Positions 7,093-52,711 of a stretch of DNA of 64,000 bases are shown one piece after another. This stretch comes from Gemmatimonadales bacterium (GTDB lineage: Bacteria; Gemmatimonadota; Gemmatimonadetes; Gemmatimonadales; GWC2-71-9): the NCBI GenBank assembly GCA_035517615.1, contig DATIYM010000018.1:45822-109821 (forward strand). The letters are read 5' to 3'. The notes below the pieces were generated by a model. That model worked only from the letters and a program-made list of their open reading frames with translations, made no database searches and was not told the DNA's origin. Position 1 is the stretch's first letter; each line of letters starts with the position of its first letter. The translations under genes were made by a program, and so were the position numbers.

Positions 7093-7869
7093 GGCGATTC
7101 AGCGCTTGGACGCGCGCTCGACGTCGTGCGCGACCTGCGCGCCCGCTGCCCGTGGGATCGGGCCCAAACCCGCGCGAGCTTACGTCCCTACCTCGTCGAA
7201 GAAGCGCTCGAGCTCGATCAAGCGCTCCGACGCGAGGACCCGGTCGAGTTGCAGGACGAACTCGGCGACCTGCTGCTGCACCTCGCCTTTCAGATCGTGA
7301 TCGCCGAGGAGCGGCACGAGTTCGATGCGGAAGCGGTAACGCGCGGCCTCGAGGCCAAGATGCGGCGTCGGCATCCGCACCTGTACGGCGAAGGAGAGAA
7401 ACCCCAGTCGTGGGAATTGGGGAAGCGGGAAGGGGGAAGCGGGAAGGGCAAGACCCTGCGTGGACTACCCCCGACCATGCCGCCGCTACTGATGGCCTAC
7501 CGGCTTCAGGAACGGGCGGCCGGAGTGGGGTTCGACTGGCCGGACGCGCTCGGGCCCATGGCGAAAGTGAAGGAAGAGATCGACGAGATCGAGCGGGAAA
7601 CGGGAAGCGACAAGCGGGAAGCGTTGGAAGCGGAGATCGGCGACCTGCTGTTTTCGGTCGTGAATCTCGCGCGCAAGCTGTCGATCGATCCCCGTGCGGC
7701 GCTCGAGCGCGCCAACGACAAATTCGTGCGCCGGTTCGGAGCGGTGGAGGACCTGGCGGCGTCCCGGGGCGTGAAACTCGGGCGGGTAGGCCTCGAGGCG
7801 CTGGACGAACTTTGGGAAGAAGTTAAGAAGTCGGAAAGGGACGGAAAGGGACGGAACGAGACCGACTAA
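7087..7869 (+). CDS. mazG: nucleoside triphosphate pyrophosphohydrolase MazG (two MazG domains)
   Basis: 260 aa. CPWDRAQT, EEALEL, ELGDLLL, RRHPHLYG, then a second domain GFDWPD...EEIDE...EIGDLLFSVVNLAR. The linker and tail are encoded by short tandem repeats (see repeat features). Confidence 0.85.
   Translation: MQGDSALGRALDVVRDLRARCPWDRAQTRASLRPYLVEEALELDQALRREDPVELQDELGDLLLHLAFQIVIAEERHEFDAEAVTRGLEAKMRRRHPHLYGEGEKPQSWELGKREGGSGKGKTLRGLPPTMPPLLMAYRLQERAAGVGFDWPDALGPMAKVKEEIDEIERETGSDKREALEAEIGDLLFSVVNLARKLSIDPRAALERANDKFVRRFGAVEDLAASRGVKLGRVGLEALDELWEEVKKSERDGKGRNETD
7420..7447 (+). repeat. tandem heptamer array GGGAAGC/GGGAAGG x4 inside mazG (encodes GKREGGSGKG)
   Basis: Read directly as gggaagc gggaagg gggaagc gggaagg. 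It is on the sense strand. The same 13-mer GGGAAGCGGGAAG recurs at 15013-15068 and 52285-52340 on the other strand. Confidence 0.8.
7595..7631 (+). repeat. degenerate heptamer array (GGGAAAC GGGAAGC GACAAGC GGGAAGC ...) inside mazG
   Basis: Read directly. It encodes RETGSDKREALEA and belongs to the same motif family as 7420-7447. Confidence 0.6.
7832..7861 (+). repeat. 10-nt tandem repeat CGGAAAGGGA x2 plus CGGAACGAGA, forming the mazG C-terminal tail
   Basis: Read directly. It encodes ...SERDGKGRNETD just before the stop at 7867-7869. Confidence 0.65.
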
Positions 7870-13785: not shown

Positions 13786-15593
13786 CAGGGCATTCCCTGG
13801 CGCCGTCGCCACGCCCATTCACCCGCGAACGCGCCGAGCGCGAGCGCGAACAACCACCACCGATCGCGCGCGTCCCGCCCCAGGACATCGGTCGCGCCGG
13901 CTCCTGGCTGCGCCCGCAGTACGGGTTCGGCGGGGCGCCACTCGTCGGAATAAGTATCGACCGCGATCATGCCCTGCTCTCCGCCCCCGCCGAGCCGATA
14001 TCGATAGATACCGGGGGGAAGGACCAGCGCGCTTCGGCCGGCGGCATTCCATCGCAGGGTGTCCTGCCGCGCGGTGTCGCCGTTCGTCAATGTCGCGACG
14101 AGGTCTTCCGGCGTTCCCCAGCCGATCCAGCGCCACCCGAGCGGCATGCCGTTCGGAACGACGAGCGCATCGGGAATGGCGCGGGTTTCGGCGCCCTTGC
14201 GATGCTCGGCCAGGAGCCAGTCCGCAAGCGCGGCAACGAGCGCCCGGTACGCCTCCGCGCTTCTGCCGCCGCGAAACACCCAACGATACAATCCCGCCGC
14301 GCCGATCTCCGCTCGCCTGGTTCCGCCAACTTCGGAAAGCACCACGGCCGGGCGTGACAACCCGCGCCGCGCGAGGCGCGCCGTCAGCACGGCCACGCCC
14401 CCGCTGTCGACAGCCGGCGCAGCGAGCGAGACCGCCGGCGGCAGCGAGTCCCAGGAGATCCCGCCTAACGCGGGGGCCGCGGGAGAGATGGGAGGCAGAT
14501 CGAAGTACCAGTCGCCATCCTGACCGCCGCGCGTGGGCCAGCGCAGCAGCGCGGCACGCGCCGGGAAGTGCCCGAAGTTCGCCGGGTCACCGCCCTCAAC
14601 GAGCAGGCGCGCCTGCGAGACCGCTGTGTGCACCTCGGCCTGGGAGACGGGCGTCAGGGACGCGGCATCGATCCAATGCTCGCCGGTACCCGCACCCGCG
14701 GTCCGCGAAAACATTCTGAGCGGCGCGCGCGCGACGTCCGACAGAGTGCGAGCGAGAAAGCGCACATCCCAATCGGGTGGCTCGGCGAGCACGACGATCG
14801 CGGGCGCCGCGCTCACCTCGACCGGGAACAATCGCGCGTCGTCACGAGGTTCGGAATCGTTCACGCCTTCCAGGCGAATCGACAGCGCATGCCAGCCGGC
14901 AGCCGGGAAGCGAGCAGCGGGAAGCGTGAGTTCTGTCGAGACAATCCCGCTGTCGGGGAGCGGGACTCGTTGCGATGCCAGCATCATGCGATCGATGGTG
15001 GCGGTCAATTTCGCTTCCCGCTTCCCGCTGCCCGCTGCCCGCTGCTCGCTTCCCGCTTCCCGCCTCCCTGCCGTTCCGTAACTCACCCTGAGCCGCAGCG
15101 TATCGCTCGCCGTGATGCGATTGGGCCCGTCTACGGCCGCGACAAAGGCATCGAAAAACGAGGCTCGCGGAAGCAGGACAATTTTCGGCAGCCGGAGCAG
15201 GTCGGGAGGGATTGCTGCTCGGTCGGTGATCGCGCCGTCGGTGACGATCGCGACGGGACCCCCGCGGCCGGCGGCGGCGCTCAGCGCGGGCGCAAGCCGG
15301 CTGTCGCCTGCGGTCGGTGGCGACGTGTCGAGCGCCGCTCCCGCCGTCTGTCCCGCGATCTCGGTCCCAAACCGCCAGACGACGCCTCCACGGGCGAGCC
15401 GGCGCGCGCTGTCTGCCGCCACGCTCCACGTCGCCCCGTACCCGCGCATGCTGAGCGAGGCATCGAGCAGCACGAGCGGTGGTTCGCTGGCGGGGAGACG
15501 ATGGGTGGCGACGGGATTCCACAACAGGAGGATCAGCGCGGCAAGACCGACGACGCGGAGAAGCGCGATCCCGAGCGTCAGCCGGCCATGCAT
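13785..15593 (-). CDS. vWA-like membrane protein with N- and C-terminal TM anchors (hypothetical)
   Basis: Track ORF 13785..16013 trimmed to ATG 15593 (MHGRLTLGIALLRVVGLAALILLLWNPV). DxSxS-like LLDASLSM follows the TM segment. C-terminal TM is WWLFALALGAFAGEWAW. It overlaps the hisA stop by 16 nt. Confidence 0.6.
   Translation of the reverse strand: MHGRLTLGIALLRVVGLAALILLLWNPVATHRLPASEPPLVLLDASLSMRGYGATWSVAADSARRLARGGVVWRFGTEIAGQTAGAALDTSPPTAGDSRLAPALSAAAGRGGPVAIVTDGAITDRAAIPPDLLRLPKIVLLPRASFFDAFVAAVDGPNRITASDTLRLRVSYGTAGRREAGSEQRAAGSGKREAKLTATIDRMMLASQRVPLPDSGIVSTELTLPAARFPAAGWHALSIRLEGVNDSEPRDDARLFPVEVSAAPAIVVLAEPPDWDVRFLARTLSDVARAPLRMFSRTAGAGTGEHWIDAASLTPVSQAEVHTAVSQARLLVEGGDPANFGHFPARAALLRWPTRGGQDGDWYFDLPPISPAAPALGGISWDSLPPAVSLAAPAVDSGGVAVLTARLARRGLSRPAVVLSEVGGTRRAEIGAAGLYRWVFRGGRSAEAYRALVAALADWLLAEHRKGAETRAIPDALVVPNGMPLGWRWIGWGTPEDLVATLTNGDTARQDTLRWNAAGRSALVLPPGIYRYRLGGGGEQGMIAVDTYSDEWRPAEPVLRAQPGAGATDVLGRDARDRWWLFALALGAFAGEWAWRRRQGMP
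15013..15068 (-). repeat. 8-unit heptamer array; sense strand reads GGGAGGC GGGAAGC GGGAAGC GAGCAGC GGGCAGC GGGCAGC GGGAAGC GGGAAGC
   Basis: Read directly on the plus strand as gcttccc gcttccc gctgccc gctgccc gctgctc gcttccc gcttccc gcctccc. It encodes GRREAGSEQRAAGSGKREA within the vWA-like CDS. Confidence 0.85.
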
Positions 15594-16304: not shown

Positions 16305-17618
16305 CTAATCGATCGGGGCGCTGGAACTCGACGTGAGAGGCTGGGTCGCGATGGGAATCGGGCCCTCGGGCTCGGCGGTCTCGGCCGTGCTCGAATCGAG
16401 CTCCGTCTGGAGCCGCGAGCGTGCCGAGTCGTACACGGCGCGCAGCGAGCGGGGAATCGCTGAGCCCGTCCCAACGTCCTTGCGTTGCGGATTGGTGGGG
16501 CGGCCATTCACGAGAAACTCATAATGCAGATGAGGGCCCGTGGCCAACCCGGTGGCGCCGACAAAACCAATCGTCTCTCCCTGCTCCACGCGCTTCCCGG
16601 CGTGCAGGCCGTGCGCGAATGCCGACAAATGACCGTAGCGCGTGCGAACCCCGTTGGCATGCCGGATTTCAATCAGATTGCCGTAGCCATCGTCGCGACC
16701 CGCCTCGGTCACGACCCCGTCGGCGGTGGCGCGCACTGGCGTGCCGTAGGGAGCGGCGAAATCGATGCCTTCGTGATTGCGCCAGAGGTGAAGAATGGGA
16801 TGGTAGCGAACTCCGAACCCCGACGAAATGCGCCGGAACTGGAGGGGCGCGCGCAGGAAGGCGCGCTTCAATGATCGGCCCTGATCGTCGTAGTAGGCGC
16901 CGCTCTCGCTCACGTCGGGCGTGAAATAGAACGCATAGCTCGGCCTGCGCGCGGCTTCGACCTCGGCCGCGAGCAGCCGGCCGAACCGGAGCTCGCCTTC
17001 GGGCGATTCGAGGCGCTCGAATAGCACCCGGAAGTGGTCGCCGGGGCGGACGTCACGCGTGAAATCGACCTCCCAGTCGTACACATCTGCCAGTGCCCAC
17101 GCCAGCGAGCGGCGCTCGACGGGCGGCAGCACGGCACCGGAAACGGCGTTGTCGAGGGCGTCGTACAGCGACGTGCTGATCACACCGTCCACGCGCACCC
17201 GGCTGACGGACCACGGGATCGTTTCGGCGGTCTCCGTCCACTGCGCGCCGCTGCGGTCGAGCTGAATGCGCCGCTCGCGCGACACGCGCACGTTCACCCG
17301 GCTCACTTCCGTTTCGGTCTTGAGCCGGCGGAACTGAAATACGACACCGGGCCGGAGCCGGCGTGCCGGCAGATCGCGCGCCGCGGTCAGAAAACTGGAA
17401 TAACTCTGGGAGACGATCCCATTGCGCGCCAGCAGGTGTGAAAGTGTCTCGCGCCGGCCGAGCGTGTCGGCGTATTCGACGTACGCCTCCTGAACCAGGA
17501 TGGGTTGCGCCGTGAGCGGCTGGCGTCCGGACCACGCTTCGCGCGCGCCCCAGGCGAGTGCTCCGAGGGCGAGCGCTGCAGTGGTGATGAAGTGGATCCG
17601 GGTGGGGCGACGGTTCAT
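16305..17618 (-). CDS. M23 family metallopeptidase (MepM/NlpD-like murein endopeptidase)
   Basis: 437 aa. N-terminal TM/signal segment. HEGIDFAAPYGTPVRATADG ... GATGLATGPHLHYEF is the LytM/M23 signature. It sits immediately downstream of ftsZ with a TAATG overlap. Confidence 0.85.
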   Translation of the reverse strand: MNRRPTRIHFITTAALALGALAWGAREAWSGRQPLTAQPILVQEAYVEYADTLGRRETLSHLLARNGIVSQSYSSFLTAARDLPARRLRPGVVFQFRRLKTETEVSRVNVRVSRERRIQLDRSGAQWTETAETIPWSVSRVRVDGVISTSLYDALDNAVSGAVLPPVERRSLAWALADVYDWEVDFTRDVRPGDHFRVLFERLESPEGELRFGRLLAAEVEAARRPSYAFYFTPDVSESGAYYDDQGRSLKRAFLRAPLQFRRISSGFGVRYHPILHLWRNHEGIDFAAPYGTPVRATADGVVTEAGRDDGYGNLIEIRHANGVRTRYGHLSAFAHGLHAGKRVEQGETIGFVGATGLATGPHLHYEFLVNGRPTNPQRKDVGTGSAIPRSLRAVYDSARSRLQTELDSSTAETAEPEGPIPIATQPLTSSSSAPID

Positions 17619-23376: not shown

Positions 23377-24507
23377 TTACCCACCACCGCTCCGCACGTC
23401 TCTCCTGCTCCCGATGCTAATCAGCGCGCCGATCATCAGCAGCGCCATAAACAGGCTGGATCTGCCGTACGAGATGAACGGCAGCGTCACCCCGGTGGCC
23501 GGGATCAAGGCGAGAGTCACCCCGATGTGCAGCAGGGCGGAGACCGCGATTGATGCGGTGAGCCCGACAGCCAGGAGCTGGCCGAACGAGTCGCGAGCAC
23601 TCGTGGCGATTCGGAAACCGAGCCAGAGCACAGTAGCGAACAGGAGCAGCACCACACTCAATCCGAGGAATCCCCATTCCTCTCCGATGGTCGAGAAAAT
23701 GAAATCGGAGTACGCGTACGGCAGGTACCCGAATTTCTGCTGTCCCATGCCAAGCCCGACGCCCACGAGCTGCCCTGCGCCGATGCCGACCAGTGATTGA
23801 TGCACCTGCCACGTCGCTTCGGAGGGGGCGCTTCCCGGATTGAGGAACGTCAGCACGCGAGCCAGACGATATTGGGCACTGGCGACGGCGCCGAACGCGA
23901 GTGGCGCGCCCACTACCGCGAGTGCGAGGAAATGGCCAATCCGCGCGCCCGCCGCGAACAGGACGACGCCGGCCAGCAGAGCAACGAGCAGCGCCATCGA
24001 AAGGTTGGGCTCGAGGAAGATCAGTGCCACAATGGGCCCCAGCACCAGGACAAACGGCAGGAGGCCGTGCTGAAACGTGCGGATGTGCTCGCCCTTCCGC
24101 GCCGCGAGCATGGCCGTCCAGATCACGACCGCGAACTTCGCCACCTCGGAAGGTTGCAGCGTGAGCGGCCCGAATTGCACCCAGCGCCGAGCGCCGTTGA
24201 CCGCGGGCGCGACGGAGCGCGTAAACGGCAGCACCGGCAAGAGCAGCAGCAGCGCCGTCAGCCCCAGCAACGGCCAGGCCGCGCGCTGCCACAGGCGATA
24301 ATCCACGCGAGCACACACCACGGCCGCGAGCGCCCCGGCTGCGCCGCCCATGAGCTGACGCAGCGCGAATCCCGCACCCACCTCGCCCGATCCCCCCGCG
24401 GCGGTAACGAGACTCGAGGAGCCGTAGACCGCCACGAGTCCGAATACGACGAGCACGGCCACTACGAGCGCCAGCAAGCGCGTTTCCCAGCGCCGCTCGG
24501 CGCTCAC
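23377..24507 (-). CDS. ftsW: SEDS-family peptidoglycan glycosyltransferase FtsW
   Basis: 376 aa polytopic membrane protein. QPSEVAKF, SDFIFSTIGEEWG, PFISYGRSS. dcw context. Confidence 0.85.
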   Translation of the reverse strand: MSAERRWETRLLALVVAVLVVFGLVAVYGSSSLVTAAGGSGEVGAGFALRQLMGGAAGALAAVVCARVDYRLWQRAAWPLLGLTALLLLLPVLPFTRSVAPAVNGARRWVQFGPLTLQPSEVAKFAVVIWTAMLAARKGEHIRTFQHGLLPFVLVLGPIVALIFLEPNLSMALLVALLAGVVLFAAGARIGHFLALAVVGAPLAFGAVASAQYRLARVLTFLNPGSAPSEATWQVHQSLVGIGAGQLVGVGLGMGQQKFGYLPYAYSDFIFSTIGEEWGFLGLSVVLLLFATVLWLGFRIATSARDSFGQLLAVGLTASIAVSALLHIGVTLALIPATGVTLPFISYGRSSLFMALLMIGALISIGSRRDVRSGGG

Positions 24508-37114: not shown

Positions 37115-37632
37115 CAGGACGCCTCCGCGAGCGGACCTGCCGCCGCGAGCACGAGCTGCTCCTGTGAGCTCAACAGCTGTGCCGTGTTGAGCACGATAAT
37201 CGTGCGTCCCTCGCGCGCGATGAGCCCGCCGATGTATTCGGCGGCGAGCCCGCGGACGATCTTCGGCGGCGGCGTGATTTCGTTTGCGCCCAGCTCCAGC
37301 ACTTCCGTGACCGCGTCCACGATCACCCCGATCCGGCCGCCACCCGCCACCGACTCGCCATCGTTGCCGCGGCTCGCGCCCAACTCCCAGTCGAGAATCA
37401 CGGTCCGCGTTTCGTTCTTGACCGGCGCCGGCACTCCGAGCCGCTTCCGGAGATCGATGACCGGCACCACGGTCCCTTGATAGCGGAGCACGCCCTCGAG
37501 AAAGGCAGGCGCCTTGGGCAGCGGCACCGGAGGTTCGTAGCGGAGGATCCGCTCAACGTGAAAGATGTTGAACGCGAAGTCCTGCCCCGCAACCTTGAAC
37601 GAGACGAGCTGGACTTCATCGCCTGTGTTCAT
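37114..37632 (-). CDS. cheW: chemotaxis coupling protein CheW
   Basis: 172 aa. LVSFKVAGQDFAFNIFHVERI...GVLRYQGTVVPVIDLRKRLG...IGVIVDAVTEVL. Confidence 0.85.
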   Translation of the reverse strand: MNTGDEVQLVSFKVAGQDFAFNIFHVERILRYEPPVPLPKAPAFLEGVLRYQGTVVPVIDLRKRLGVPAPVKNETRTVILDWELGASRGNDGESVAGGGRIGVIVDAVTEVLELGANEITPPPKIVRGLAAEYIGGLIAREGRTIIVLNTAQLLSSQEQLVLAAAGPLAEAS

Positions 37633-50150: not shown

Positions 50151-50771
50151 TCAGGTCACGCGAATGGCGTCGAAGATCGCCTTAAGAGACGCGAGATCCG
50201 GCAGGAGCAGGAAGTGGCCCCGCAGCCCCTCACCGTTGTCGAACCGGAATTCCGTTTCGACGCAGAAAATGAAATCGCGCTCGTGACCGAAATTGAGATA
50301 GGCCGTCGTGAGGACCGCGCCCGCCACATCGATGACGAGACTCGGCACCGACGGCAGGAGCAGCATGCCCATGAACTCGGAGAGCGCGTTCATGTAGGCG
50401 CCCGCGAGAATATTCCCGGCTTCCTTGAGGCAGGATTGCTCGAGCGTCTCGTAGCTTGCGGTCTGGCCCTTCGGCCGGCGCAGCAGCATGTCGCACAGCC
50501 GCCGGCCGACCGCTTCCGGCAACACGAGCAGCGTTCTCCCGGTGAGATCGCCCAGCATGTGCATGAGCACCGCTGCCACTACCGCCTGCGAATCACCCAA
50601 CAGCTCGGGCACGTCCTCGAGCCGTGTGATGATGATGCGCGGAACCGTGATCATGATGCGCCGATCCGTCATCTGGGACAGCGCGGTCGCTGCGTGCCCC
50701 GCCCCGATGTTCGCCACCTCGCGCAGCGCATCGATCTGCAGCGCTTTCAATTCGCGGACGTCCTGCATCAC
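50151..50771 (-). CDS. cheC: CheY-P phosphatase CheC
   Basis: 206 aa. Both phosphatase motifs ([DS]xxxExxN) are present: DALREVAN and SCLKEAGN. Confidence 0.8.
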   Translation of the reverse strand: MMQDVRELKALQIDALREVANIGAGHAATALSQMTDRRIMITVPRIIITRLEDVPELLGDSQAVVAAVLMHMLGDLTGRTLLVLPEAVGRRLCDMLLRRPKGQTASYETLEQSCLKEAGNILAGAYMNALSEFMGMLLLPSVPSLVIDVAGAVLTTAYLNFGHERDFIFCVETEFRFDNGEGLRGHFLLLPDLASLKAIFDAIRVT

Positions 50772-50785
50772 GTAGGCCGCCCTTC

Positions 50786-52711
50786 CTAGACGAGGCCGCC
50801 GGCGTCGAGAATCAAGGCCGGCACGCCGTCGCCCATGATGGTCGCGCCACTGAAGAGGGGCAGCGTACCCCGGGGCGCATCGAATCCCTTCACCACGATC
50901 TCCTGTTGTCCCAGCATGCTGTCGACTACGAGCCCGGCGCGCCGCTCCCCCATTTCGAGCACGATGATCGGCCGTCGGGGCGGCACGTCGCCATCACCCA
51001 CGGCAAGCAGACGGCGCAGGTGCACGAGCGGCACCACGCGATCGCGCAGCACGATCGCCTCGCGCCCTTCGAGGGTCGTGGTCGGCGCGCTCCCGAGCTC
51101 GATCGTCTCCGAGACGTACGTCAACGGCAGCGCATACCGCTCGCGACCCACGCTCGCGATGAGCGCCCGCACGATGGCGAGCGTGACGGGAAGCCGCAGA
51201 ACGAACGTCGTTCCCCGCCCCTCATCCGAGCGCACTTCGACGCTGCCGCCGAGTGCACGCAGCCGCGTGACGGCGACGTCGATGCCCACGCCCCGGCCGG
51301 AAACGGCGGTGACCGACTCGGTCGTCGTGAACCCCGGCCGCGCGATGATCCGCAGCAGCTGGTCGTCGGTGAGGTTCTCGGCATGCGGGTCGACCAATCC
51401 CTCGCGTTTGGCACGCTCGAGCACCTTGCGGCGGGGAATGCCGCGGCCGTCATCCGAAATCGTGATGATCACGCTCGAGCGCTCGCGCACCGCCGCGAGC
51501 ACGATCTCGCCCTCGGGCTTCTTGCCGGCGCGCCGCCGCTCTTCCGGCGGCTCGATCCCGTGGTCCACCGCGTTGCGGAGCATGTGCACGAGCGGATCGC
51601 CCAGCTCGTCCAGGATCGTGCGGTCCAGCTCGATCTCTTTTCCCTCGACGCGGAACTGCACCTGCTTGCCGAGCTGGCGCGCACTGTCGCGCACCAGCCG
51701 GGGAAACCGGTCGAACACCTGCCACACGGGCGTGAGACGAGCCTGAATGATTTGATCCTGCAGATCACGCGAGAGGCGCGCGACGCCGAGGGCGATGTCG
51801 TCGATCGCCGGGTCGCGGCGCGCCACCGCCAGCTCGTTCAACCGTCCACGCACGATCACGAGCTCGCCGATCAGATCCATCAACGCGTCGAGGCGGCGCA
51901 GGTCGACCCGCAGATGCCGCGCGCGTCCCGCCTCGCTCCCCGGCGCCGCCGTCTGAGATTCGGGTCGCGGCGCCGCGGGCTCGTCCGCGGCCACGTCGAC
52001 GGATTCCACGTCGCCCGCCCGTTCGATTGCCTGCACGACGTCCGCGATGGACGCGGGCGTTTCGAGACGGAAGGCAAAGTGCCCGTCGAAATCTTCGGAT
52101 TCGAACGTTTCGGTCGGCGGTGAGACGGCCCGCACCGTACCGAGCGCGCCCGCATAACGCAGCGCGATCAGCGCCCGGCCACCCTTGAGCGGCGCCGTTT
52201 CGCGCAGCGCGACGCGCACGAGACGCCCGGCGGGCTTGAGGGTCCGCGCTGGTTCTGGTACGCGCGGACTCGGGTCCGCATCTGGCGTGCCGCTTCCCGC
52301 TTCGCGCTTCCCCTTCTCCTCTCCCCCTTTCCCCTTTCCCGACGCGAGGGCGAGGTCGCGCAGCACGGCATCGAGGTCCGCGTCTCGCTCGCGACCGGCA
52401 ACCGCGAGCCCGATGCTCGATTCGAGCGCATCGACCGCGCGGAACAGGAGCTGGAGCACTTCGGGACTGACGGGGGCGGCGCTGCTGCGAATCCCATCCA
52501 GCAGGCTTTCCGCCGTATGCGCGAGCTCGGCCACACGCGCGTATCCCATCGTGGCCGCCATGCCTTTGACCGTATGCATCGCGCGGAAGATGCCGCTCAC
52601 CGGGTCACGCGCCGACGGATCACGCTCGAGCGCGAGCAGCAGCTCGTTGCAGGCGCTCACATGCTCCCGGCTCTCCGCCAGGAACAGGTCCGCGTACTGC
52701 GAAAGATCCAT
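50786..52711 (-). CDS. cheA: chemotaxis histidine kinase CheA
   Basis: 641 aa. HPt FRAMHTVKGMAATMGY, dimerisation domain, HATPase motifs (HMLRNAVDHGIE, DDGRGI, GRGVGIDV) and a C-terminal CheW-like P5. The linker after P1 is encoded by a heptamer array. Confidence 0.9.
   Translation of the reverse strand: MDLSQYADLFLAESREHVSACNELLLALERDPSARDPVSGIFRAMHTVKGMAATMGYARVAELAHTAESLLDGIRSSAAPVSPEVLQLLFRAVDALESSIGLAVAGRERDADLDAVLRDLALASGKGKGGEEKGKREAGSGTPDADPSPRVPEPARTLKPAGRLVRVALRETAPLKGGRALIALRYAGALGTVRAVSPPTETFESEDFDGHFAFRLETPASIADVVQAIERAGDVESVDVAADEPAAPRPESQTAAPGSEAGRARHLRVDLRRLDALMDLIGELVIVRGRLNELAVARRDPAIDDIALGVARLSRDLQDQIIQARLTPVWQVFDRFPRLVRDSARQLGKQVQFRVEGKEIELDRTILDELGDPLVHMLRNAVDHGIEPPEERRRAGKKPEGEIVLAAVRERSSVIITISDDGRGIPRRKVLERAKREGLVDPHAENLTDDQLLRIIARPGFTTTESVTAVSGRGVGIDVAVTRLRALGGSVEVRSDEGRGTTFVLRLPVTLAIVRALIASVGRERYALPLTYVSETIELGSAPTTTLEGREAIVLRDRVVPLVHLRRLLAVGDGDVPPRRPIIVLEMGERRAGLVVDSMLGQQEIVVKGFDAPRGTLPLFSGATIMGDGVPALILDAGGLV
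52285..52340 (-). repeat. heptamer array on the cheA sense strand (GGGAAAG GGGAAAG GGGGAGA GGAGAAG GGGAAGC GCGAAGC GGGAAGC GGCACGC)
   Basis: Read directly. It encodes SGKGKGGEEKGKREAGSGT in the P1-P2 linker of CheA. Confidence 0.8.

Follow-up and report, generated by a model that had tools for sequence, protein, structure and literature searches.

The heptanucleotide repeats closest to those considered here are the G-rich heptamers GGGAATC of Xanthomonas and GGGGA(C/T)T of Nostoc (Rehm et al. 2015, PMC4692102). In Xanthomonas, GGGAATC is over-represented genome-wide in arrays of 2 to 26 units (modal number, ~4), and its function is not established. X. campestris carries 70 convergent inverted pairs of GGGAATC arrays able to form stem-loops, and repeats of this type form G-quadruplexes in vitro and have been proposed to act as such (PMC4692102). 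The same paper cites work from 2007 in which heptamers proved over-represented among the repeats of bacteria, as well as the idea of a polymerase-footprint bias in slippage; the excess, known since 2007, is still unexplained. TAACTGA direct repeats have also been described in Beggiatoaceae, Cyanobacteria, and Bacteroidetes (MacGregor 2015, PMC4679880). Here, we describe heptamer arrays in a 64,000-nucleotide (nt) stretch of DNA (the window) from a Gemmatimonadales bacterium (assembly GCA_035517615.1, contig DATIYM010000018.1, positions 45,822 to 109,821), in particular an array of eight GGGAAGC-type units within a conserved gene for a membrane protein (the host gene). A literature search found, within the library searched, no description of heptamer arrays in Gemmatimonadetes. 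Like the Xanthomonas repeats, these arrays have a 7-nt unit that opens with a G tract (GGGAAGC, GGGCAGC, GGGAGGC). Unlike them, they belong to another phylum, both arms of the inverted pair are translated at fixed codons in a conserved gene, and the arms change unit together. We consider it likely that the array is the 5′ arm of a hairpin-forming intragenic inverted pair of translated heptanucleotide microsatellites, one of a clade-wide class, and that the pair evolves by in-frame slippage and arm homogenization. The parts of the pair are as follows.

Positions 13788 to 15593, minus strand: host gene, a 602-amino-acid (aa) open reading frame (ORF) for a conserved Gemmatimonadales membrane protein.
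Positions 15013 to 15068, minus strand: arm 1, eight sense-strand heptamer units (GGGAAGC type), encoding residues ~176 to 195, GRREAGSEQRAAGSGKREAK, a disordered loop.
Positions 14927 to 15012, minus strand: spacer between the arms, ~86 nt (85 to 86), encoding conserved beta-strands, KLTATIDRMMLASQRVPLPDSGIVSTELT.
Positions 14899 to 14926, within the minus-strand gene and G-rich on the plus strand: arm 2, the complementary array, encoding LPAARFPAAG.

An earlier reading of the window (the original prediction) had placed eight units at 15013 to 15068, and both the sequence (minus strand: GGGAGGC, GGGAAGC, GGGAAGC, GAGCAGC, GGGCAGC, GGGCAGC, GGGAAGC, GGGAAGC) and Tandem Repeats Finder (period 7, 8.1 copies, 90% matches, score 79) bear out these coordinates and this unit structure. 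Its reading of the array as a heptapeptide cycle independent of frame was likewise correct, the array being translated as GRREAGSEQRAAGSGKREAK, and its description of a flexible linker agrees with the AlphaFold model, in which arm 1 is a flexible loop between two beta-sandwich strands with pLDDT below 50 at residues 181 to 189. Arm 2 is an ordered turn in the same model. The main feature of this locus was overlooked by the original prediction: arm 1 has an inverted partner, and the two arms change in concert. Arm 2 lies 3′ (downstream) of arm 1 within the host gene, reads GCTTCCC, GCTGCTC, GCTTCCC on the gene sense strand, and is detected by Tandem Repeats Finder at periods 7 and 14. The odd unit of arm 1, GAGCAGC, is mirrored by GCTGCTC in arm 2. 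Since this partner is antisense in the very gene that holds the longest copy, the claim that the repeat always lies on the coding strand is wrong. Among inverted repeats within 250 nt of each other, the arm pair ranks first in the 64-kb window, with inverted-repeat pairs (I1, I5, and I9) of 33 nt at 85% complementarity and other registers of 23 to 26 nt at 87 to 88%. RNA folding of positions 14885 to 15085 predicts a ~25-bp long-range stem with a ~95-nt loop (-101.4 kcal/mol, z = -4.2), of which the spacer would form the loop. DNA folding of the arm-pair region gave z = -3.7, and folds of the arm pair in orthologs gave z = -5.1 and -2.9.

The complementary arms change unit together across lineages. 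Orthologous loci (3 + 80 + 2, labeled L001 and so on) were obtained as syntenic neighborhoods from metagenome-assembled genomes (MAGs), not as whole genomes, and both arm regions were extracted from 66 of them. Both arms occupy the same codons in ~65 Gemmatimonadales orthologs, and at most loci arm 1 and the reverse complement of arm 2 share a heptamer that differs among lineages (GGGATGC, GGGAAAC, GGGAAGC, GGGAAGA, GGGACGA, GGGGACG, GGGGAAG, or GCGAGAT). The peptides follow mechanically from the unit, so that GKREAGS in arm 1 goes with ASRFPLP in arm 2, GMRDAGS with ASRIPHP, GKRETGN with VSRFPSP, and GTGDGGR with SPVPRP. The dominant unit was identical in both arms at 31 of 66 loci, compared to a permuted mean of 5.1 and a maximum of 13 over 2000 permutations; among loci with clear arrays in both arms, the units matched at 29 of 52, compared to 5.4 expected. 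To account for eight arm-matched unit classes, at least seven coordinated changes are needed. A consensus stem emerged from an ungapped alignment of 26 orthologs, and eight of its pairs keep pairing through two-sided changes; at columns 38/144, for example, 10 sequences have AU, 8 have UA, and 4 have CG. Of the cells in this stem, 93.2% were paired (87.5% when shuffled) and 44 were double changes (18.6 expected), values reached in none of 500 shuffles, while sliding the partner by 1 to 3 columns lowered pairing to 36 to 58%. The arm pair behaves as a covarying stem, and covariation does not tell the RNA level from the DNA level. Distant orthologs at 48 to 51% identity (L045 to L047, L055 to L058, L067, and L069) have neither arrays nor arm complementarity, and array-free orthologs keep the length of the segment (e.g., GPRPAGTARRA versus GKRETGNGKRTA in the host gene).

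The arm repeat is also under constraint as a nucleotide sequence. The arms depart strongly in codon usage from the rest of the gene, both in arm 1 (Gly GGC, 7% versus 43%; Glu GAA, 58% versus 23%; Arg AGG plus AGA, 39% versus 5%; Asp GAT, 70% versus 28%) and in arm 2 (Leu CTT, 59% versus 4%; Ala GCT plus GCA, 75% versus 11%; Arg CGT, 53% versus 9%). Synonymous resampling, which drew codons according to the gene's own usage and scored the best 24-nt arm pairing, gave 16.6 of 24 paired positions compared to 20.8 of 24 observed, a value reached by 5% of resamples; for the window alone, 22 were observed compared to a resampled mean of 17.4 and a maximum of 20. Orthologs that encode the same peptide with unrelated codons would have refuted the original prediction, and this is not what the orthologs show: they hold the repeat at the nucleotide level, with strongly atypical codons, as the original prediction of a true DNA-level microsatellite implied.

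The number of units has changed in frame. Compared with its 82%- and 78%-identical relatives, the window has exactly 21 nt more in arm 1, which amounts to three units or seven residues, while the length of arm 2 is unchanged relative to the 82%-identical relative, and the spacing of the arms among orthologs varies by whole codons only. Within the species, all seven full-length sequences of the 90% cluster are 602 aa long, and all four sequences in the cluster of the sister species are 595 aa long. The sole array variation among sequences of the species cluster is an Ala (GCA)/Glu (GAA) polymorphism at codon 187 (positions 15031 to 15033), which toggles the unit between GGGCAGC and GGGAAGC (three Ala and four Glu among the seven). 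A metagenome scan with the array flanks and a variable gap returned no match, hence no alleles of other lengths, and was uninformative. A 201-aa sequence (P0126) considered as a frameshift allele was rejected as a C-terminal fragment from a contig end. Copying of the 21-nt expansion from arm 2 was also considered; it is plausible, given the mirrored GAGCAGC, and unprovable, the 78%-identical relative also having GAGCAG in arm 1.

In about 20 orthologs, the host gene carries a third sense-strand array at about +1340 nt from the start (GGGGAGC, GGGAGCA, or GGGGGAA; e.g., L001:11348-11372, L004:11364-11396, and L015:11382-11414), which has no inverted partner. The window lacks this third array and encodes GGGGEQG at that place.

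Related arrays occur in two other genes of the window.

Positions 7420 to 7446, plus strand, sense: mazG array 1, (GGGAAGC/GGGAAGG)x4, in the linker between two MazG domains, encoding GKREGGSGKGK.
Positions 7592 to 7633, plus strand, sense: mazG array 2, degenerate (GGGAAAC, GGGAAGC, GACAAGC, GGGAAGC), encoding ERETGSDKREA.
Positions 52290 to 52340, minus strand, sense: cheA P1-P2 linker arrays (GGGAAAG, GGGAAAG ... GGGAAGC, GCGAAGC, GGGAAGC), encoding GKGKGGEEKGKREAGSG.

The 13-mer GGGAAGCGGGAAG, which the original prediction had noted in mazG and cheA as well as in the host gene, occurs 10 times in the window with at most one mismatch (plus strand, 7420-7446 and 7595; minus strand, 15014-15068 and 52293-52312). 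Dinucleotide shuffles gave 0.13 expected, and none of 100 reached 10, so this recurrence is indeed beyond chance. The units are nonetheless site-specific. At the mazG array 1 segment, orthologs have other heptamer units or none, with a length that is much alike in most and longer in a few; the loop of mazG array 2 is 35 aa long in nearly all orthologs, with or without arrays. The cheA array falls between the Hpt and P2 domains in a hypervariable linker and is lineage specific, orthologs at 59% identity or less having Ala/Pro-rich linkers. Between arm 1 and each of the two mazG arrays from one genome, units agreed no more often than by chance (3 of 13 and 4 of 21 comparisons). The match between the arms is therefore a property of the pair and not of a genome-wide unit preference, and the same comparison led us to reject a unit shared genome-wide through a trans-acting factor or a mobile family. 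In L017, mazG (16442-16673) holds an intragenic inverted pair, with (GGGGAGC)n on the sense strand and a C-rich copy 152 to 183 nt away that adds 17 residues, GTAPRSLLPSLHTAPRSPLP; the C-rich copy looks like a de novo inverted duplication of the neighboring (GGGGAGC)n array. The window has two other tandem repeats, one with 2.3 copies of a 21-nt unit (50626-50673, close to the 3′ end of cheA) and one with 2.0 copies of a 24-nt unit (37222-37271).

Arrays of this period form a clade-wide class. We took a census of arrays with at least three units and 13 of 14 matches at the lag in 1.41 Mb, comprising the window and 83 loci. Period 7 stood out, with 223 arrays observed and 12 in shuffled sequence, an ~18-fold enrichment, compared to little or a much weaker excess at neighboring periods (period 5, 171 and 166; period 6, 95 and 34; period 8, 11 and 3; period 9, 16 and 3). 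These counts uphold the claim that the repeats are dispersed beyond chance; ~70 of the 223 arrays lie within the host gene itself. Long poly-G runs at contig ends or beside Ns in several MAGs (L014:1-35, L048:1-53, L073:11873-11914, and L011:4621-4642) are probably sequencing or assembly artifacts and were left out of the census. Intergenic period-7 arrays often occur as convergent inverted pairs with arm-matched, site-specific units and can fold into stems of 20 to 30 bp. Between ftsW and murG, the pairs consist of GGAATGC, GGAACGC, GGATTGC, or GGAGTGC according to lineage, matched between arms; in L001 (2235-2330), the pair would form a ~30-bp stem (z = -5.8) just upstream of the murG start, without a U-tract. 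Downstream of recG, inverted pairs consist of GGGTGCC, GGTGCGC, GGTGTCA, GTCTGAT, or GCTGATA (17 units in L055). In genes other than the host gene, the G-rich strand is nearly always the sense strand, and the exceptions are partner arms. This bias fits a filter by protein tolerance, as G-rich arrays translate to Gly/Lys/Arg/Glu.

The ftsW/murG pair is also found at about 2050 to 2380 in L005, L009, L010, L013, L015, L018, L019, L025, L034, L042, and L076, and its equivalent in the window (23657-23844) is a degenerate inverted repeat only. The arrays downstream of recG include AT-richer ones (GCTGATA, GTCTGAT, GATGACT, and GGCTGAC), often in inverted pairs (L055:14682-14843, L046:14675-14767, L069:12314-12399, L045:14685-14726, and L080:11767-11828). 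When rotated, they read T-N-N-CTGA, like the TAACTGA direct repeats of Beggiatoaceae and cyanobacteria, and they are present even where the host gene has no arrays. A (GGGGAAA/G)n array stands at the very start of recG in L002 (11808-11831), L005 (12690-12713), and L016 (12565-12588).

We suggest that these arrays turn over by replication slippage, of which only three-unit steps would survive in coding sequence. The likeness of the arms might be kept by templated repair or gene conversion from arm to arm (template switching of the quasipalindrome type), by selection on the stem, or by the two together. Both the GKREAGS peptide and the preference for G-rich sense strands would then be by-products, G-rich sense copies perhaps persisting in genes because proteins tolerate Gly/Lys/Arg/Glu loops. 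Inverted copies can arise de novo, as the mazG of L017 indicates for one lineage. Several points weigh against this explanation. Formation of the stem in vivo is a prediction from computed folding. The permutation and shuffle controls ignore relatedness among the loci, the neighbor-joining tree is too poorly resolved to count independent unit switches, and the census draws on a biased sample, namely syntenic loci from MAGs. In L085, a close relative, arm 1 is degenerate while arm 2 is kept, so that pairing has decayed and is not obligatory. Comparisons of strand asymmetry, which bear on an RNA-level or a DNA-level stem, conflict: whole-arm duplexes alone favor the sense RNA (48 to 18), G.U and A.C mismatches are near parity (37 and 31) with registers chosen without bias, and intergenic pairs fold alike on either strand (10 versus 8). 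Moreover, it is hard to explain by simple slippage how arrays of three to five units are homogenized within a coding segment of fixed length without breaking the frame.

A selected mRNA stem-loop in the coding sequence, kept by compensatory evolution, is compatible with the slippage and homogenization outlined above, and we regard it as a tentative alternative with rather less than an even prospect. A duplex of 22 to 28 bp could serve as an RNase III site, a decay barrier, or a translation pause, and intergenic heptamer pairs would serve likewise within operons. The covariation of the stem is what such selection predicts, as is its retention in most of the ~55 array-bearing lineages at 50 to 60% protein identity. 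Whole-arm duplex energies favor the sense RNA at 48 of the 66 loci (versus 18); in L003, six of seven positions per unit stay paired only with G.U wobble; and the ftsW/murG pair is intra-operon, immediately upstream of a start codon, and free of a U-tract. The loss of pairing in L085, the near parity of G.U and A.C mismatches, and the equivalence of sense and antisense strands for intergenic pairs all argue the other way, and transcription-coupled C-to-T mutation bias could mimic a G.U excess. The arm pair also has no Rfam match; in an Rfam 15 scan of the window, two tRNAs only reached the gathering score. More broadly, Gemmatimonadales may use paired-heptamer hairpins as a general cis-acting device in operons and coding sequences, with the host-gene pair as a selected nucleic acid stem, a suggestion that we hold to be possible rather than probable. 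If it were true, concerted evolution would let the sequence of the stem drift with both arms still translated, and a single set of bases would serve one functional structure as well as two protein loops.

It is unlikely that the sense-strand G-rich arrays are G-quadruplex elements (GGG-N4, at least four times) that act on mRNA or the non-template strand of the DNA. At least four GGG tracts occur in each of the three window arrays, arm 1 mostly has four to five across orthologs, and related heptamers form G-quadruplexes in vitro (PMC4692102). However, the window shows no enrichment of putative quadruplex sequences (6 versus 4.1 ± 1.9 shuffled), and in many arrays of this class G runs stop at GG or are missing altogether (e.g., GGAATGC, GCTGATA, and GTCTGAT). 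A quadruplex would conserve the G tracts, leaving the identical loop bases and the complementary partner arm unexplained.

Heptad arrays are bound by ribbon-helix-helix proteins such as omega of pSM19035. By analogy, the arrays might be binding sites for a protein that reads 7-bp iterations, which would suit the strict 7-bp period and the direct and inverted arrangements; we think this very unlikely. Units differ among the sites of one genome, with concordance at chance, which argues against any single sequence-specific reader for all arrays, and no candidate protein was identified.

The three remaining explanations are, in our judgment, barely credible. The original prediction envisaged phase variation, as at a contingency locus where gain or loss of a single unit switches the gene off and on. 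Seven is not divisible by three, so that a single-unit change shifts the frame, and the array is long enough for slippage. However, all 11 population sequences have a constant length within their species, interspecies changes come in whole codons (here exactly 21 nt), and the array occupies codons 176 to 195 of a conserved syntenic gene beside the division cluster, not the 5′ end of a surface antigen gene. The comparison with mobile in-frame insertions of the Rickettsia palindromic element (RPE) or MITE type, spread among genes, fares no better. GGGAAGC is common to three unrelated genes of this genome and the inverted arms look like terminal inverted repeats, but the 86-nt spacer is conserved protein-coding sequence, and the units are site-specific, with no shared mobile consensus and with chance concordance within genomes. 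Alignment of orthologs speaks against insertion as well, segments being of the same length with or without arrays at arm 1, at arm 2, and in the 35-aa loop of mazG array 2, while it supports the other half of the original prediction, a repeat at the nucleotide level. Finally, ordinary low-complexity protein or protein-level coevolution of two loops, with the DNA periodicity incidental, might be expected from a disordered Gly/Lys/Arg/Glu loop and from two arms within one beta-sandwich domain, yet it is refuted at the level tested, as the arm codons lie far from the gene norm precisely as the heptamer demands, synonymous resampling destroys the pairing, and Lys-to-Met, Glu-to-Asp, and Phe-to-Ile replacements co-occur through a single base change in the unit.

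The host gene has hisA and ftsY as its neighbors and is located downstream of the dcw/ftsZ cluster, and synteny is kept across the mur/fts division genes (ftsW, murG, ftsA, and ftsZ), an M23 peptidase gene, hisA, the host gene, ftsY, recG, asnS, mazG, and alr. Its product is identical to HUK21059.1 from a Gemmatimonadales MAG, and its homologs are hypothetical proteins of Gemmatimonadales of 582 to 611 aa. In the AlphaFold model (mean pLDDT, 78.6), transmembrane helices at the N and C termini accompany a small alpha/beta domain, which bears a DASLS motif, and beta-sandwich domains for which the best PDB match is a CARDB domain. Both arms are situated in a CARDB-like beta-sandwich. With this fold as the best structural match and no Pfam match for the protein, the "vWA-like" label that had been given to the gene is unconfirmed. 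The upstream hisA-like ORF runs past the host ATG (15593) to its stop at 15578, so that the two ORFs share 16 nt (15578 to 15593). Gene calls at the orthologous loci show this overlap too, and it suggests translational coupling.

It is unusual for two translated microsatellites to make up a covarying stem, and this stem renders the puzzle of heptamer repeats testable. The locus is an unusually clean natural experiment in which two arrays at fixed codons, in dozens of species, show at least seven different units, matched between the arms in most. Homogenization by templated DNA repair can here be set against selection on the stem, the 7-nt periodicity can be examined as a property of the replication machinery, and so can the tolerance of protein loops for a sequence dictated by DNA-level processes. 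Annotation calls for caution here as well: in these genomes, Gly/Lys/Arg/Glu "linkers" are dictated by a nucleotide repeat and not by the choice of residues.

Several known systems share some of these features. The cyanobacterial STRR heptanucleotides and the TAACTGA repeats are likewise tandem heptanucleotide arrays dispersed through the genome, and some intergenic Gemmatimonadales arrays in outgroup genomes (TAGCTGA, TGTCTGA, and TGACTGA) resemble TAACTGA. However, STRR and TAACTGA arrays are AT-rich, contain stop codons, are not translated, and are not known as covarying pairs; most TAACTGA repeats are direct, lie between genes, and closely precede a start codon. The host-gene array resembles the contingency loci of Haemophilus and Neisseria in being a tandem repeat in coding sequence with a unit length that is not a multiple of three, but it differs in its lack of unit-number polymorphism, its frame-keeping 21-nt gain, and its mid-gene position in a conserved housekeeping-type neighborhood. 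Like RPEs and MITE-like insertions, the pair is palindromic, capable of forming a hairpin, and translated within a gene; unlike RPEs, it is not inserted, its interior is conserved coding sequence, and there is no element consensus across sites. Nucleotide-level tandem repeats in ORFs of Borg elements (PMC9879509) likewise add intrinsically disordered loops; those repeats are direct and are described as rapidly evolving and recently formed, whereas the arrays here have a 7-nt unit, conserved orthologous sites, and an inverted partner. Intergenic heptamer pairs such as ftsW/murG recall REP/BIME elements in being stable intra-operon hairpins without U-tracts, while REP elements have no tandem heptamers, have a genome-wide consensus, and are extragenic by definition. 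The Xanthomonas repeats remain the nearest relatives. Their G-quadruplex trait is represented here by a sequence motif only. In Xanthomonas, one consensus unit recurs across the genome, mostly at intergenic sites, and the coding strand of ORFs carries fewer repeats than expected, whereas Gemmatimonadales units are site-specific and many G-rich arrays lie on the sense strand in ORFs. In both, there is an excess of period 7 (here 223 versus 12 in syntenic loci), convergent inverted pairs are frequent, and the arrays vary in length and sequence between relatives at conserved sites.

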